In this document: one piece after another, positions 1 through 5,577 of the stretch | Numbering within the stretch: the first letter of the stretch is position 1 | Layout: every line of letters starts with the position of its first letter | IMG/VR virus record: IMGVR_UViG_2563366825_000014 | Coordinates: 1 to 5,577 of that record | Strand: one strand, 5' to 3' | DNA: 5,577 nucleotides | Source of the DNA: a virus | Lineage: Duplodnaviria > Heunggongvirae > Uroviricota > Caudoviricetes | Made by a program: the position numbers and the translations under genes | Notes under the pieces: generated by a model | Seen by the model: the letters and a program-made list of their open reading frames with translations, nothing else | Told to the model about the DNA's origin: nothing | Databases searched by the model: none

Positions 1-745
1 GACCTGCGGGGCCGGTTTCTCCCCGAGGGCCTGCGGGACCTGCCGGACCTGTTGCGCCGGGTTCACCTTTATCCCCTTTCGGGCCGGTTTGCCCTGCCGG
101 ACCCTGTGGTCCGGGTGGTCCGGGTGGTCCGGCCTCTCCACGTGGGCCGGTGTCACCTTTCGGCCCCGGCGGTCCGCCCGGGTCACCTTTATCGCCCTTC
201 GGTCCCTGTGGACCTGTTTCTCCCCGTTCTCCCTTTGGCCCCGGCTCACCTTTTGGTCCGACCGCCCCCGTTGCCCCGGCTGGTCCCTGTGCCCCTGTGG
301 CACCCTGTGGACCTGTGTCCCCCTTCTCGCCCGCCGGTCCCCGGGCATTCTCTGCCCGTTTCTTCGCTTCCTCTGCACTCGCCGCCGACGCTTCAGCACG
401 CTTCAGGATTTCCGCTGCCACCGCTTCCAGCTCTGCAAGCGCTTTCGGGTAATACTGCGCCTCATCCTGTTCCATCAGAAATTTATTCAGCGTTCCCGGC
501 TCAGAATCCGCCTTCACCAGAATGTCACCCACATACGACGGGGCGCACCCTTCCGTGTTCAGCGTCACCCGGTACCACCCCGGCTCCACATCAAAACTGT
601 AACTGCCGGTTTCCCCCGGCTGCCCCTGCGCCACCGTGGTGACTATCACTGTCTCTGTGGTGCGTCGCGCTTTCAGCTCTATGGTGCATCCCGGCACCGG
701 CTTCCCGGTGCCGTCCTTCAGCACGCCCGATATTCTGACTGTCAT
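1..745 (-). CDS. stf: Side tail fibre protein, lambda Stf-like: N-terminal domain (~135 aa) followed by collagen-like Gly-X-Y repeat region; partial, 3' end beyond window start
   Basis: ATG at 745..743 preceded by GGGAGA Shine-Dalgarno (plus 751-756 is its complement). Hand translation of the minus strand gives [38 protein letters not shown]..., which matches from memory the lambda Stf N-terminus ([17 protein letters not shown]...). From codon ~136 (plus 340 downward) the frame reads [113 protein letters not shown] and stays open to position 2. It is absent from the ORF track only because no stop lies inside the window. Confidence 0.85.
106..132. repeat. Perfect 3x tandem 9-bp repeat (GTGGTCCGG) inside the stf collagen-like region; encodes consecutive Gly-Pro-Pro / Gly-Pro-Gln triplets on the minus strand
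   Basis: Positions 106-114, 115-123 and 124-132 are each gtggtccgg. The unit length is a multiple of 3, so slippage would add or remove whole G-X-Y triplets in frame. Confidence 0.8.
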
Positions 746-758
746 AGATTTCTCCCAT

Positions 759-792
759 AAAAAAAAGCCCGCAGCAGTGACGCCACGGGCTT
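759..792 (-). terminator. Rho-independent terminator-like hairpin plus U8 tract, immediately upstream of the stf ribosome-binding site
   Basis: Minus-strand RNA reads AGCCCG-(14-nt loop)-CGGGCU followed by UUUUUUUU (plus 759-766 is an A8 run; stem arms are plus 766-771 and 786-791). The loop is longer than in a textbook terminator. Confidence 0.45.
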
Positions 793-825
793 CAGGACAG
801 TGTAACTTTACGTTTCCTCAAACGC

Positions 826-849
826 AGTTCATCACATGAGGCGGATGAA
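826..849 (-). other. Perfect 7-bp stem / 10-nt loop hairpin (GTTCATC...GATGAAC) in the lom-stf intergenic region
   Basis: Plus 826-832 gttcatc and 843-849 gatgaac are exact reverse complements. Not followed by a U tract, so not a terminator by itself. Confidence 0.4.
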
Positions 850-856
850 CCTGCGA

Positions 857-865
857 ATTATAACA
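857..865 (-). promoter_or_regulatory. Candidate sigma70 extended -10 element (TGnTATAAT) reading toward stf
   Basis: Plus 857-865 attataaca is the reverse complement of TGTTATAAT, a perfect extended -10. No convincing -35 hexamer, which is permissible for extended -10 promoters. Lies 32 bp downstream of the lom stop. Confidence 0.3.
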
Positions 866-896
866 ATGTTTGCAGAAGATAAATCGTCATATACTC

Positions 897-957
897 TCAG
901 AATCGGTATCCGGTGCCGACAATAAACGCATCCGTACGCCAGTCACCACGTCCTGAG
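897..957 (-). pseudogene. lom: Orphaned 3' end of lom (last 17 codons plus stop), separated from the rest of the gene by the IS insertion
   Basis: Minus-strand translation of 950..897 gives RGDWRTDAFIVGTGYRF-stop, which matches the lambda Lom C-terminus as I recall it (SGDWRTDGFIVGVGYKF). It is in frame with the 5' lom segment once the IS and one copy of the 7-bp repeat are removed. Positions 951-957 are the left copy of the target duplication. Confidence 0.85.
951..957. repeat. Target-site duplication, left copy (TCCTGAG)
   Basis: Identical 7-mer directly abuts both IS termini (951-957 and 3539-3545). The lom reading frame is continuous across the reconstructed empty site. Confidence 0.8.
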
Positions 958-1072
958 TGCGTATTACCGTGAAGGAGATCGGTGAGTAACATCGATGGAG
1001 ATCGGTTCGTGTCACTTTCACAGAACCGTTTTTAAATTACCTTCACTGATCTCCTTCGGTCAACGGAGATTG
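958..1072. repeat. Right end of the IS (downstream of istB): terminal inverted repeat plus sub-terminal repeats
   Basis: GGAGATC at 974-980 and 997-1003, its complement GATCTCC at 1048-1054, and a partial copy GGAGAT at 1065-1070. The 17-bp core TAACATCGATGGAGATC sits at 986-1002. Confidence 0.7.
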
Positions 1073-1792
1073 TATTTTCCGCATTGATTCTCCTTTAAGT
1101 TCGATCTTGATACTGCCATGAACCAGTCGATCTAGGATGGCATCCGCATGTGTGGAGTCTCCGATCATTTTGTACCAGTTTTCCACCGGCAACTGGCTCA
1201 CTACGATGATTGAGCCTCGTTGGTACATCAGATCCACTATTTCCAGCAGGTCGCTACGCTGTTCTGATGAGAGAGGTTCCAGCCCCCAGTCATCCAGAAG
1301 CAGCAGATCGCTATTATTCAGCCTGGTCAAAAGTTTGCTGTATCTTCCATCAGCATGCCCCTGATAGCACTGTTCCATCAGCGCTTTAAGGCGATAATAG
1401 TAGACCTTGTATCCCTGTCGGCAGGCATTATGACCAAGTGCACATGCCAGGAACGTTTTACCGCTGCCGGTGGCCCCGGTCAGTAAAATATTTTGTTTCA
1501 GGGTTAACCAGTTTCCCTGACTGAGTGAACGGATGAGGGCCCTGTCCAGCCCTCTATTGTTACGATAATCCAGCTTTGATAACTCAGCATTAAGTCTGAA
1601 CCGTGCATGTTTGATCAGACGCTCTGCCTTCCTGTTTTCACGGCAGGTTAGTTCTTCTGCTGTCAGTAATGACAGGCGTTCTTCGAAGCCCAGCTCCTGG
1701 TATGTGCCCGGCTGAGCAAGTTGCTTTTTAAGCGCATCACGGAAGCCGGTGAGTTTAAGTGCGGTCAGTTGTTCGTAAAGATGATTCATCAT
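1043..1792 (-). CDS. istB: IS21-family helper ATPase IstB (249 aa)
   Basis: Walker A motif GATGSGKT (in LLTGATGSGKTFLACALG) and Walker B-like LLLLDDWG are visible in the translation. Start lies 11 nt downstream of the istA stop, the usual IS21 arrangement. Confidence 0.93.
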   Translation of the reverse strand: MMNHLYEQLTALKLTGFRDALKKQLAQPGTYQELGFEERLSLLTAEELTCRENRKAERLIKHARFRLNAELSKLDYRNNRGLDRALIRSLSQGNWLTLKQNILLTGATGSGKTFLACALGHNACRQGYKVYYYRLKALMEQCYQGHADGRYSKLLTRLNNSDLLLLDDWGLEPLSSEQRSDLLEIVDLMYQRGSIIVVSQLPVENWYKMIGDSTHADAILDRLVHGSIKIELKGESMRKIQSPLTEGDQ

Positions 1793-1803
1793 TGGATCCC
1801 GTA

Positions 1804-3345
1804 TCAGTGGTAATACTCACTGCCGCGTACGTTTTCGTGTTCCATCGTGGATAACAGATCTGGTTTTGGATCCTGAACAGGTTGTTTATCCAGACCTTTT
1901 TCCAGGATCGATTTAATACCTGACAGACGCCATACCTTTGTTTTCAGAGCTCTTGCACATGCTGCATTAAGTCTGGCTTTACTGTATTTTTTATGAAGGT
2001 TCAGGAGTCCAAGGCAGAAGCGATAGCTTTGTTCCGGATGTGGACGAGAGTTCAGTATATGAAGCACATAACTATGAGTTTCACTGCCTATGTGCCCCGC
2101 CCATTCCAGAAGACGCTCTGGCGTCCAGGTGGCATGCTGTCGATGAGCTTCAGGCATGTGCTCGTTGCGGGTACTGTAGCCATAAGTACGCTTGCGCGGG
2201 TGCACAGCAACCTCCTGCCCCTGATTGAAGAGTCTTACCAGTTCTCCGGAGATCCATGCTTCCAGTTGCTGGCCTAACAGCGAACATGGAACCGAGTAGT
2301 AATGTTTGTCGATTTCCACGTGGTAATCGGCATGAACTCTGACTTTCTTCACCAGGGTGTAACTGTAACTGGCTTCAGGAAGAGGCTTCAGTGCGGGTTT
2401 ATCAAGCTGGATGAAGAGTTCTGCACGTGAATAACCCAACTTCTGCATTATTTTGTTATTCAGTCTTTCCAGCAACTCCCGAATGCGCTGATTAAGCGAT
2501 GCAAGGCTGTAGAAGATCTCATGCCTGATTCGGGCCATGATCCAGCGTTCAACAACCTGAACGCCAACTTCAGCTTTGGCTTTATCTTTCGGTTTACGTG
2601 GCCGCGCAGGCAAAACTGCGACATTATAATGCTCAAGCATCTGCTGGTAGGTAGGGTTAACGTCAGGATCATACTTACATGCCCTGGATGTGGCGCTTTT
2701 CAGATTGTCCGGAACAACAAGTTCAGGAACGCCACCCAACCACTGGAAGCAGCGAACATGACTCATCACCCAGTCTTCAAGCTGCTGAGACCAGGTGGCC
2801 TCTGCCCATGTGTAACTTGATGCCCCGAGAACAGCTACGATGACCTGAGCAGTTCTTATTTCTCCGGTCTCAGGGTCGGTAACGCCAACGGTAGGTCCAC
2901 AGTAATCAACGAAAAGTTTTTCGCCAGCTTTATGTACCTGACGCATTGATGGTGAAGTGGTTTTGAGCCATTCACGGTACATCCGGCAGTAATGGTTATA
3001 GCTGTAAAAACCGCCTGGATTACGCTCACAGTATTCTTCCCAGAGTAGCTGCAGCGTCACGCATTTATTACGCAGTTCCCGGTGTACTGTAGCCCAGTCA
3101 GGCAGAGAGTGCTTCTTCATCTTAACCTGGGTCTGAAGGAACGCATGTTTTAGTTTTGTATCATCCCATCCTGTAGGTAAGGGCCACTGCTTTATGCCAA
3201 GTTGAGCCGCCCGATTAGCATATCTGGATACAACGGAAGGGGAGATTGCAAGACTACGACCAATTTGTCGATGGCTGAGTCCAACACCGTATTTAAGCCT
3301 AAGAATTTCTTTAAGTTTTCTCATAGAAATTGGAACTGTTGGCAT
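1804..3345 (-). CDS. istA: IS21-family transposase IstA (513 aa), DDE-type
   Basis: N-terminal helix-turn-helix-like segment (LSHRQIGRSLAISPSVVSRY). Candidate catalytic acidic residues in FVDYCG, VVPDNLKSA and KAEVG contexts. AGGA-like Shine-Dalgarno 6-8 nt upstream of the ATG at 3345. Size and position directly upstream of istB. Confidence 0.93.
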   Translation of the reverse strand: MPTVPISMRKLKEILRLKYGVGLSHRQIGRSLAISPSVVSRYANRAAQLGIKQWPLPTGWDDTKLKHAFLQTQVKMKKHSLPDWATVHRELRNKCVTLQLLWEEYCERNPGGFYSYNHYCRMYREWLKTTSPSMRQVHKAGEKLFVDYCGPTVGVTDPETGEIRTAQVIVAVLGASSYTWAEATWSQQLEDWVMSHVRCFQWLGGVPELVVPDNLKSATSRACKYDPDVNPTYQQMLEHYNVAVLPARPRKPKDKAKAEVGVQVVERWIMARIRHEIFYSLASLNQRIRELLERLNNKIMQKLGYSRAELFIQLDKPALKPLPEASYSYTLVKKVRVHADYHVEIDKHYYSVPCSLLGQQLEAWISGELVRLFNQGQEVAVHPRKRTYGYSTRNEHMPEAHRQHATWTPERLLEWAGHIGSETHSYVLHILNSRPHPEQSYRFCLGLLNLHKKYSKARLNAACARALKTKVWRLSGIKSILEKGLDKQPVQDPKPDLLSTMEHENVRGSEYYH

Positions 3346-3400
3346 AGGTATCCTTTACCGGAATGGCAAAAGATACAGATCAACACACCTGTGAAGTTCC

Positions 3401-3538
3401 AATAACATTGATGGAGATCACTGAATAACAAAATGAGTCAAAAGTGATCTCCATCGATGTTATTCAGCGATCTGTTCAAATGTTATTACCCGATCTCGAT
3501 GGAAGTTATTGAGTGATCTCCTTTCATGAAAATACGCA
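3401..3538. repeat. Left end of the IS (upstream of istA): terminal inverted repeat plus multiple sub-terminal repeats, including a 22-bp inverted pair
   Basis: 3401-3422 aataacattgatggagatcact and the reverse complement of 3443-3464 (aataacatcgatggagatcact) differ at one position. Further GATCTCC/GGAGATC copies at 3413-3419, 3446-3452 and 3515-3521, and a partial copy at 3491-3497. Confidence 0.75.
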
Positions 3539-4084
3539 TCCTGAGGCTTCATAAGCCAGGTCGACCACGATATTTTCTGTCGGGTTAATCTGCACGCCTG
3601 CACTGTATGTCAGTGCGGTATGGCTGCGGCGTCCGCTGTCCGAACGGGTCAGGTGCTCCTGCTTTTTACCCTCATCTGACGTGAGGGTCACATAATCACC
3701 GGCAAAAGACGACACCCGGGCATACGACACTCCGGCCAGCGCATAAGCGCTGAACCATTCATTCACGCGCACAGATGGCCCCGCCATCACGCTGAACCAG
3801 CGGTTACGCACAGAATCCTCATGCCAGCGGGTATCGTTGTAGTGCGTTTTTTGCTCACCTTCAGCATTGGCATAACTGAATGACGTAATCAGCCCCAGCG
3901 TGTCCGTAAATTCATAACGGTATTTCACGTTAATCCCGTTCAGATCATCACTACCGGTAGTGTTCGTCAGGGCATGAAGATACCCCGCACTCAGCGTGGC
4001 CTGCTGCTCAGACGCCCATGCAGGCGCACCGGATACGGCCAGACAGATGGCTGCGGACAAAATGGCTGCACAAACTTTACGCAT
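3524..4084 (-). pseudogene. lom: lom-type outer-membrane protein gene (Lom/Ail/PagC/OmpX family), 5' 182 codons intact, C-terminus replaced by 4 IS-encoded residues (CVFS) and a stop inside the IS terminus
   Basis: Translation MRKVCAAILSAAICLAVSGAPAWASEQQATLSAGYLHA... closely matches the lambda Lom signal peptide and mature sequence from memory. GAGAGG Shine-Dalgarno upstream of the ATG at 4084. Lom homology ends at 3539; codons 3536..3524 lie within the IS. Confidence 0.88.
3539..3545. repeat. Target-site duplication, right copy (TCCTGAG)
   Basis: See left copy at 951-957. Confidence 0.8.
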
Positions 4085-4106
4085 AATTACCTCTCGCTTT
4101 TCTGCA

Positions 4107-4133
4107 ATAAAAAAGGCACCATTTCTGGCGCCC
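4107..4133 (-). terminator. Rho-independent terminator between J and lom (tJ-like)
   Basis: Minus-strand RNA reads GGCGCC-AGAAAU-GGUGCC (6-bp stem with one G-U pair) followed by UUUUUUAUU. Lies 19 nt after the J stop codon. Confidence 0.5.
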
Positions 4134-4151
4134 GTATCTGGGTTATAAAAT

Positions 4152-5577
4152 TCAGCTAATCGTGATGCCTGCAGTGGCTTTCTTCATCACCACAACCAGC
4201 AAATCGCTGATACTTGCTGTGGGATACCAGTTATTTACCAGCCATGCTGACACCGAAAACTCCAGTGTCATGTGACCGTGACCGGCAGGCATATCAATAA
4301 CGCCACTGTAAATCAGCGTATTATCCAGCGCGGTACGGTTATAAATTTCAGCACCGTTTTTCCGCACTATCAGACGGCATGAGGAGTAAATATCAGTATG
4401 CTCTCTCTCATGCTTAGCGCCACTGAATGCCACCGCCGGAATAACAATCTGCCGGTCAAACGGCTGATCGTCATAAACCCTGACGGTAATGGTCCCTGAT
4501 GGCCACCGCTCCGGTGCACGGGAATCCCGGGGGAAAGCTTTGCCCACTGTTTTAACGAGATCGCCTTCAATCTGGTTCGCGGACAGTTTTCCCAGAACCC
4601 GACAGTTCTCGTTAATCGTGACGTTGTTGAGCGTCCCGGAATTCGCATTCACGTTACCGCTGATATCAGCATTTCTTGCGGTCAGCCTGCCCTCCGGCGT
4701 CAGGGAAAACGTCGGGGGATTGCCGGACGAGGTGATACTCACCGCAAACAGCCGCTTCAGGAACACATCGTTCATGAACAACTGATTCCCCTGCGCCACA
4801 AATAACGGCGTGGTGTTGCCGTCCTCCGGGTTAATCATCGCAATACGGTCAGCCAGCAGCAGTATGTTGCTCAGGGGCTGGCCATCAGTATCCTCAATCC
4901 CCGCTCCAATACCGGCAACATAGGGTATGCCATTTTTTGTTTTCTGTACCTTCAGCATGTAAAGTGCAGCAAGGTCATCATTTGTGTCCTTCTGCACGCG
5001 CTGTATCTGCTGTATGGTGGCGCTCTGGTCCTCCAGCGTTTTACTGACCGTCTGTGTGATTTCATTGCGGGTTTCTGTGATGGTGGTCTGCATTTCCGCC
5101 ATCTCGTCCTTCAGCTTGCTGTTGTCAATCTCTGCCCACAACGCCTCTGCCAGATGTGTTTTTCCTATCTTTTCCCGGAAAAACTCCAGATAGCCCGCAG
5201 CATCATTGCTCGCCCGTCCACTGGCTTCCACAAAAGCAGATTTACCCACCAAGTTGACGCTGCGCACATAAAACCAGAAATCCTTTCCGGGCTTAATGTG
5301 CGGACCGGAGACACTCCACTGACTGCCGGTCCCCAGATAACGGGCAGAGGTTTCCACCTGTGCGGCGTCTGCAATTTTTGCCTCCGAAAACCAGAACTCA
5401 AACTGCACCGTCGGGTCATAAATGGTCAGTTTCGGGACTGCCGTTATCTGAAAATACCCCGGCGTCAGTTCAACACCGGCAGGCGCTGCCGGTGCGTTAA
5501 TCCGGAACGTGGTGGTGGCGGGTTCGCCCTGCTGGCCATAGCTGTTAATCGCCCTGACCGTCAGGGTGTATTCCCCG
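4152..5577 (-). CDS. J: Central tail fibre / host-specificity protein, lambda gpJ-like, C-terminal ~475 codons; partial, 5' end beyond window end
   Basis: Frame is open from the window edge (5576) to the stop at 4152. The M at 5408 in the ORF track is an internal GTG, not the start. Translation contains ...[27 protein letters not shown]...YLGTG...[17 protein letters not shown]...VAGIG...[19 protein letters not shown]...[15 protein letters not shown]...DMPAG..., matching the lambda J C-terminal region as I recall it. Position upstream of lom matches lambda gene order. Confidence 0.88.

Follow-up and report, generated by a model that had tools for sequence, protein, structure and literature searches.

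A candidate small RNA gene in the spacer between lom and stf of Escherichia coli lambdoid prophages

The stretch of DNA analysed here, 5,577 nucleotides long and referred to below as the window (positions 1 to 5,577 of IMG/VR record IMGVR_UViG_2563366825_000014), belongs to a lambdoid prophage of Escherichia coli, of the P-EibA type. It matches NCTC9112 in three pieces at 99% identity, and the ECOR-9 prophage P-EibA matches it at 99.4% identity across the region of interest. On the minus strand, the 3' end of J is followed by lom, then by a 151-nt intergenic spacer (896..746), and then by an stf-like tail-fibre gene; annotation at homologous loci agrees with the assignment of lom. This spacer, hereafter the element, and its possible function as a small RNA (sRNA) gene are our subject. 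In the direction of transcription, the parts of the locus are as follows.

897..957, minus strand: the last 61 nt of lom, which encodes an outer-membrane protein of the Ail/Lom family (stop codon TGA at 899-897; translation ending in ...GTGYRF and the stop)
886..896, minus strand: post-stop spacer, variable
857..885, minus strand: conserved upstream block (GATTTATCTTCTG...) and extended -10, a predicted sigma-70 promoter without a -35
851..856, minus strand: discriminator; predicted transcription start at about 850-852, from the usual spacing of ~7 nt after a -10
827..850, minus strand: 5' hairpin (hairpin 1), with the 7-bp stem GTTCATC/GATGAAC at 850-844 and 833-827 and a 10-nt loop
794..826, minus strand: near-invariant core, TGCGTTTGAGGAAACGTAAAGTTACACTGTCCT, mostly unpaired or weakly paired, a candidate seed region
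759..793, minus strand: intrinsic terminator, with a 12-pair stem (793-782/775-764), a 6-nt loop and U8 at 766-759
743..758, minus strand: ribosome-binding region and start of stf, with the Shine-Dalgarno sequence GGGAG at 756-752 and ATG at 745-743
From the ATG at 745-743 to position 1 and beyond, minus strand: the stf-like gene, which contains collagen-like repeats ('prophage tail fiber N-terminal domain')

We show here that the sequence features that suggest a short transcription unit are all present in this spacer, and beyond what chance would give. The initial annotation, made from the letters alone, had placed between an upstream lom and a downstream stf an extended -10 (857-865), a 7-bp stem-loop (826-849), a second hairpin with a U8 tract (759-792) and only then the stf Shine-Dalgarno sequence and ATG. 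Both gene assignments are correct and every one of these features is there, the two hairpins lying at most 1 nt from where they had been put (850-827, and 793-764 with U8 at 766-759). The extended -10, TGTTATAAT at 865-857, is a perfect match to the consensus, and TGNTATAAT occurs a single time in the window with both strands counted, where 0.08 occurrences would be expected by chance (at least one occurrence in 16 of 200 shuffles). A terminator scan reports the stem 793..764 with 13 pairs by its own count, 7 of them G-C, followed by T8 at 766-759; folded alone, this terminator reaches -20.1 kcal/mol (z = -4.7), and it ends only 2 nt before the Shine-Dalgarno sequence. The terminator is of the Rho-independent type found in sRNAs, with a U-tract of at least six: U8 in the window and U6-U7 in the other lineages described below. 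The 92-nt RNA predicted to run from 850 to 759 folds at -34.4 kcal/mol, as against -22.3 +/- 3.0 for dinucleotide shuffles (z = -4.0), none of 200 shuffles being as good.

An argument for the RNA-gene reading comes from the comparison of lom, spacer and stf aligned across related prophages. Sequence diversity of the element is low, amounting to three lineages (window/P-EibA, O157/EPEC, where EPEC is enteropathogenic E. coli, and 'strain 10'/RM10466) and a handful of point variants. Identity among these lineages is 20-70% along much of lom and 40-70% for stf (about 90% in one pair), whereas the core, by sliding identity, is 97-100% identical in all three lineage pairs, including the pair that has diverged on both flanks. 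Counted by segment, the variable columns of the alignment are distributed as follows.

Stop codon and post-stop spacer: 9 of 14
Upstream block and -10: 5 of 29
Discriminator: 3 of 6
Hairpin-1 arms: 1 of 14
Hairpin-1 loop: 3 of 10
Core (826-794): 1 of 33
Terminator 5' arm: 0 of 12
Terminator loop: 2 of 6
Terminator 3' arm: 1 of 12 (an indel in the U-run)
Remainder of the U-run and Shine-Dalgarno spacer: 6 of 18

Core and terminator 5' arm together thus have 1 variable column in 45, against 30 in 109 for the rest of the intergenic region (Fisher p = 1.2e-4; the segments were picked once the data had been seen). Substitutions sit in the post-stop spacer, at -13 and -9 of the promoter, in the discriminator, in the hairpin loops and in the Shine-Dalgarno spacer, and both stems are kept. 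In the -10, the lineage variants TGTTATGAT and TGGTATAAT differ at -13 (the n of TGn) and -9 only, and the TG, T-12, A-11 and T-7 are kept in all three lineages; a rare variant (L032) has lost the motif. The base of the hairpin-1 stem is invariant, and its apical part and loop are specific to each lineage, still closing as a hairpin of 7-9 bp. Substitutions in the terminator are confined to its loop, and the U-run varies between 6 and 8. All three lineages fold into a 5' hairpin and a terminator with z of about -4; a middle hairpin in the minimum free energy (MFE) fold of the window is not kept in the strain-10 lineage. The core behaves as a seed region would, in that 826-794 has one variable column, is weakly paired, and pairs differently between lineages. 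As far as an alignment can tell, this pattern of variation is the one expected of an RNA gene with a functional promoter, and not of a neutral 3' untranslated region (UTR).

The element is also a discrete module. A 171-nt query was matched in 1654 of 5426 complete E. coli genomes (~30%), at up to 5 places in a genome (median 1), almost always under annotations of Lom and a tail fibre. E. coli O157:H7 Sakai has a single copy in prophage Sp9 (NC_002695.2 1798916-1799066, plus strand, between ECs1807 and ECs1808), EPEC E2348/69 has one in PP6 (NC_011601.1 1470637-1470787, between E2348C_1438 and E2348C_1439), and genomes of the ST131 type carry the element as well. More than 120 copies were found in IMG/VR. 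An exact-core search of the species representatives of GTDB was positive only for E. albertii. A covariance model of the element scores its members at 113-117 bits and gives no related match in the short-form or other classes of sequence upstream of stf.

Where its neighbours have been destroyed, the element is kept. In the window, the insertion sequence ISEc12 (IS21 family; 958..3538, minus strand; istA 1804-3345, istB 1043-1792) lies inside lom, 61 nt before the stop codon, flanked by a 7-bp target duplication (TCCTGAG, at 951-957 and 3539-3545). The rest of lom, cut off by the insertion, is found at 3546-4084, a split confirmed by BLAST against the intact lom of NCTC9112. ISEc12 is outside the element proper, and its insertion shows the element persisting without an intact lom. 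In another locus (L049), a deletion joins gene E, which encodes the major capsid protein, to the final codons of lom (~7928-8855), and in a third (L057) an IS200 sits in the terminator U-run in place of stf; in both the element is intact. ISEc12 is oriented as lom and stf are, so that outward transcription from it, if any, would run into the element's terminator.

Not every part of the element is specific to it. In a survey of 80 metagenomic loci (L135-L214), collected through the Stf N-terminus, every class of sequence upstream of stf that we examined ends in an intrinsic terminator with a T6-8 run abutting the stf ribosome site. The classes are the 151-nt element, the short form of lambda and Rac, and two classes without lom that have an unrelated hairpin. 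In lambda (L002, 786-850) and the K-12 prophage Rac (L134, 4986-5049), the spacer between lom and stf is 64 nt long and holds only a G+C-rich terminator (AGCCCG...GGGCTTTTTT) ending just before the stf Shine-Dalgarno sequence. In its position, a few bases before that sequence, and in its function, this hairpin corresponds to 759-793 of the window; the short spacer differs in lacking the -10 motif, the 5' hairpin and the conserved core, and the element's covariance model does not match it. Among spacers of the lambda/Rac type the stems vary and the hairpin is kept (GCCCGCCGG/CCGGTGGGC; GCCCGCCGG/..GGCGGGC; GCCCGCAG/TGCGGGC in L165).

Morons, in addition, come with a terminator of their own (PMC3594210), and lysogens express lom (PMC7067206). 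Because all classes upstream of stf have a terminator, and the window's stf 5' end is also found behind one unrelated terminator unit, the terminator is best read as an insulator between the lom moron and stf that marks the moron boundary, and not as a property of the element. It is thus no evidence for a leader of stf. The specific part is the ~90 nt that lead from the lom stop codon to the terminator, which are absent from lambda and Rac and which have the terminator at their 3' boundary, as in an optional insertion of the moron kind.

We tentatively propose, putting it a little short of an even chance, that the element is an independent sRNA gene of ~90 nt at the 3' end of the lom moron, predicted to share the lom terminator. 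Transcription would start at about 850-852 from the extended -10 (865-857) without the help of a -35, a position that corresponds to about 1798962-1798964 in Sakai and about 1470682-1470684 in E2348/69. The RNA would have a protective stem-loop (850-827) at its 5' end, offer the near-invariant, largely single-stranded 33-nt region (826-794) as a surface for base-pairing or protein binding, and end at the intrinsic terminator with its U8 tail (793-759), which it would have in common with the lom mRNA, giving a product of ~90 nt. The terminator would have a second, general role in shielding stf-tfa from transcription that is not Q-modified, and Q-antiterminated late transcripts would read through it. 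Besides the features of the sequence, this proposal draws on the status of the element as a discrete optional module and island of conservation between divergent genes, on its retention where neighbours are destroyed (the ISEc12-split lom, L049 and L057), on the precedent, by analogy, of the sRNA PasB in the same prophage type and gene plan, and on one chimeric sequencing read that is a weakly positive trace of the RNA.

The initial annotation had offered the arrangement as either a small RNA or a terminator-controlled leader in front of stf. Its first alternative survives the comparison in so far as the element is a discrete, widespread module with conserved -10, 5' hairpin, core and terminator stems. 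The second is not: the MFE and centroid folds of the three lineages always hold the full terminator, leaving no antiterminator alternative, inspection of the sequence found no segment complementary to either terminator arm and no leader open reading frame (ORF), and the terminator is general. The annotation was right that no such element is described at this position in lambda, which lacks it.

A more far-reaching version of the proposal is possible, though we hold it with less confidence than the existence of the gene itself. The element would then be an unnamed prophage regulatory RNA of ~90 nt in ~30% of E. coli, its 45-nt core held constant through action in trans on a conserved host or phage target, and it would be expressed outside the conditions of the Hfq screens or independently of Hfq. 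By analogy, the target would be, for example, envelope or receptor expression, or another sRNA, as for the anti-sRNAs AgvB and AsxR.

Comparable systems are known. PasB (EcOnc22-24) is an sRNA from the tail region of prophages of EPEC and enterohaemorrhagic E. coli (EHEC), validated by northern blot, Hfq dependence and RIL-seq, in which interacting RNAs are ligated and sequenced (Pearl Mizrahi 2021; Tree 2014; Zhu/Shabalina/Storz 2026 preprint). Like the element, it lies in the tail-gene block of the same prophage type, is intergenic and short (~83 nt), has a -10 (TTATAAT) and an intrinsic terminator with U7, and is widespread in E. coli beyond EPEC and EHEC. In contrast to the element, which is in sense orientation after lom, PasB occupies the spacer of gpI and gpJ, runs antisense to the tail genes and is unrelated in sequence. 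An exact match to the PasB northern probe, preceded by GCTTATAAT, is present in the gpI-gpJ spacer of NCTC9112 (L001 ~15440-15535, outside the window), so that the window-type prophage carries PasB 4.4 kb upstream of the element.

A second comparable system is the MicL and DapZ type of sRNA, embedded at the 3' end of a gene, with its own promoter and the terminator of the upstream mRNA. What the element would share with these is a promoter close to where a protein gene ends, together with a short RNA and a terminator in common with the mRNA. In MicL and DapZ the promoter lies inside the coding sequence, whereas the predicted promoter of the element lies just after the stop codon; MicL and DapZ are also bound by Hfq and have known targets. 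The third is 24B_1 (PMC4426718), a small RNA beside the lom gene of the Shiga toxin (Stx) phage Phi24B. [quoted passage not shown] The element has no sequence similarity to 24B_1, and neither Phi24B nor 933W is among its BLAST matches.

The element belongs to no known RNA family that we could find. With the window, the NCTC9112 prophage (L001) and locus L133 as queries, no family of Rfam 15 reached its gathering threshold, including AgvB, AsxR, STnc100, Esr41, IsrG and IS009, and at E <= 10 there were only chance matches driven by the terminator, of at most 19 bits. Nor is it one of the catalogued prophage sRNAs that we checked. PasB maps to the gpI-gpJ spacer in antisense, HnrS (EcOnc10-12) to Sakai 1779522 near pR', as against 1798916-1799066 for the element, AgvB and AsxR also near pR', and 24B_1 to the opposite strand of an unrelated region. 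If real, the element would add one more, and widespread, prophage-encoded sRNA.

Other readings of parts of the spacer were considered and set aside. The ORF at 636-839 on the plus strand cannot be conserved as a frame, since it runs across the U-run with its variable length of 6 to 8, and inspection of the sense strand found only ORFs of at most 4 codons in the element, not conserved. A Fur box or inverted repeat in the block upstream of the -10 is, on inspection, not conserved between lineages.

Several observations weigh against an independent sRNA gene. Among hexamers at a spacing of 15-18 nt from the -10, the best match TTGACA at no more than 3 of 6 positions; with no usable -35, a scan for consensus promoters reports nothing. 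The commonest -10 variant is the weaker TATGAT, carried by Sakai among others, in place of the TATAAT of the ECOR-9 and NCTC9112 type. Pair counts and RNAalifold over 11 distinct variants gave compensatory changes in 0 of 29 pairs, the changes in hairpin 1 being one-sided only (U-A/U-G). The comparison across related prophages that the initial annotation had put forward thus upholds the conservation of the hairpins and not the compensatory changes, for which the variation is too small to let the covariation test decide; a covariance-model search for divergent homologues that would add variation found none. Islands of conservation at the module junctions of mosaic phages can, moreover, have another source in recombination.

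Published expression data are negative, with one weakly positive exception. E2348C_1438 and E2348C_1439 are absent from the EPEC RIL-seq interaction and feature tables (Pearl Mizrahi et al. 2021), which cover limited conditions and in which lom is nearly silent (baseMean ~2), and ECs1807/ECs1808 are absent from the EHEC tables of Hfq CRAC, in which cross-linking is followed by cDNA analysis (Tree et al. 2014), likewise from limited conditions. Judged on these EPEC RIL-seq and EHEC CRAC tables only, no association with Hfq or with a partner RNA is found. The latter study also does not count the Sakai locus among its 63 EcOnc candidates or its leading Hfq-bound intergenic regions; the EcOnc screen required a distance of >100 bp from a coding sequence, a condition that parts of a 151-nt spacer fail. 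The positive trace consists of one chimera from RNase E cross-linking, ligation and sequencing of hybrids (CLASH) in EHEC Sakai, in which the 3' end of MicF is joined to 'ATGGGGTGAACTGCGT' (Waters et al., PMC5286369, supplementary file 5). This sequence is the 3' half of the O157-type hairpin 1 (window ~822-837, minus strand) and is annotated there as 'ECs1808 5UTR' (NC_002695). A single CLASH read could also derive from read-through of lom.

Searches for a target yielded nothing above chance, whether among prophage initiation regions, in MicF or in ompC. When the core was compared with 16 translation-initiation regions of Sakai Sp9 (including those of nleA, nleF, nleG, nleH, espM and espO), none beat shuffled cores. 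Pairing of MicF with the core, suggested by the CLASH chimera and by a 9-bp match noticed on inspection, is equalled by 20% of shuffles. A mimicry of the ompC start (AAAGTTA...ACTGTCC), with an alignment score of 19 against 14.4 +/- 2.1 for shuffles (p ~0.05, post hoc), was dropped.

The explanation that best survives beside an sRNA gene, although we consider it rather unlikely, is that the element is the passive 3' UTR of lom followed by a general insulator terminator. The -10-like motif would then be inactive or negligible, RNA across the region would occur only as the tail of the lom mRNA or of late transcripts, and the core would be a cis element of that mRNA, one that determines its stability, for instance, or at which it is processed or bound by a host sRNA or protein. 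This would fit the missing -35, the silence of the EPEC RIL-seq and EHEC CRAC tables, a lone CLASH read that is annotated as UTR and ligated to the host sRNA MicF, the definition of morons as carrying their own terminator (PMC3594210), and the occurrence of that terminator in all classes upstream of stf, including lambda, where there is no promoter. A plain 3' UTR should, however, diverge together with lom, and the spacer is far more conserved than lom in all lineage pairs. Moreover, the critical positions of the promoter are kept while neighbouring ones vary, the element is retained where lom is disrupted or deleted, and MicF pairs with the core no better than with shuffles.

That the constraint acts on the DNA is improbable. 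The core would in this case serve as a 'linker' for recombination where the lom and stf modules of mosaic lambdoid phages meet, or as the site of a DNA-binding protein, with incidental RNA-like features around it. The element does lie exactly at a mosaic junction, the window type sharing the 5' part of lom with the O157 type and stf with the strain-10 type, and two rearrangement end points abut it. Yet the O157 and strain-10 lineages have diverged on both flanks and are identical in the core, which a single crossover cannot explain; variation follows the geometry of the hairpins, stems being kept and loops varying; and inspection of the sequence found no repeat or palindrome of the protein-site type conserved across lineages.

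Least probable of all is a regulated leader or second late-type promoter for stf-tfa, with the stop at the terminator relieved by an antiterminator (Q-like, put-like or an alternative fold): a strong terminator that stands immediately before a gene, behind a promoter and a short structured RNA, does resemble the layout of pR'-tR' (6S RNA, StxS) and of attenuators (PMC7547250), and the two adjacent hairpins of the window's MFE fold superficially recall HK022 put RNA, but there is neither a mutually exclusive antiterminator pairing nor a leader peptide, the strain-10 lineage does not keep the second hairpin, the initial transcribed region shows no -10-like pause element, an identical stf 5' end stands behind an unrelated unit while three different stf alleles follow the element, and stf is already served by Q-modified late transcription.

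The pR'-tR' unit can also be compared with a candidate sRNA gene. Both have a constitutive-looking promoter and a strong terminator within ~100-200 nt, inside the late operon, and the by-product RNA of pR'-tR' can act as an sRNA (StxS, PMC7547250). The difference is one of place: pR'-tR' sits after gene Q as the loading site for Q antitermination, whereas the element is at the far end of the late operon and contains no recognisable Q-binding or pause element. In lambda, stf is served by Q-modified late transcription.

Through prophage sRNAs such as AgvB, AsxR, StxS, HnrS and the Pas RNAs, DNA gained by horizontal transfer is linked to the core regulation and the virulence of pathogenic E. coli. 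If the element is indeed an sRNA gene, it would be a widely distributed regulator, in about a third of sequenced E. coli, with an invariant core and adjoining host-range genes. Published screens could not easily have seen it, because so short an intergenic region does not pass the EcOnc filter and Rfam has no model of it. If it is only a 3' UTR or insulator, the finding that every stf examined has, as a shield, an intrinsic terminator right against its ribosome site would amount to an architectural rule of the lambdoid tail module, one that explains why morons expressed from the prophage, like lom, do not drive tail-fibre expression.

Some further observations concern the surroundings of the element and its counterparts. 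In the prophages without lom (L135, L142, L159-L163), a different conserved unit occupies the ~100 nt 5' of stf, consisting of 'TTTTAA..ACCAC.A.TTTTAC', then CGCAG(A/G)CCGG-GNAA-CCGG(T/C)ACTGCGG, and finally T7-8; this, too, may be a small transcription unit, analogous to the candidate one here. At window 1-360 (minus strand), the stf frame has a long G-X-Y collagen-like run encoded by very G+C-rich GGNCCN repeats, and these G-X-Y repeats match the prophage collagen-like tail-fibre proteins treated in PMC3368898. The NCTC9112 prophage (L001 1-5622 and 17782-18945) has as cargo an ompC-like porin gene amid the tail genes and, 3' of the tail fibres, an Eib/YadA-like gene and an S6 autotransporter peptidase.

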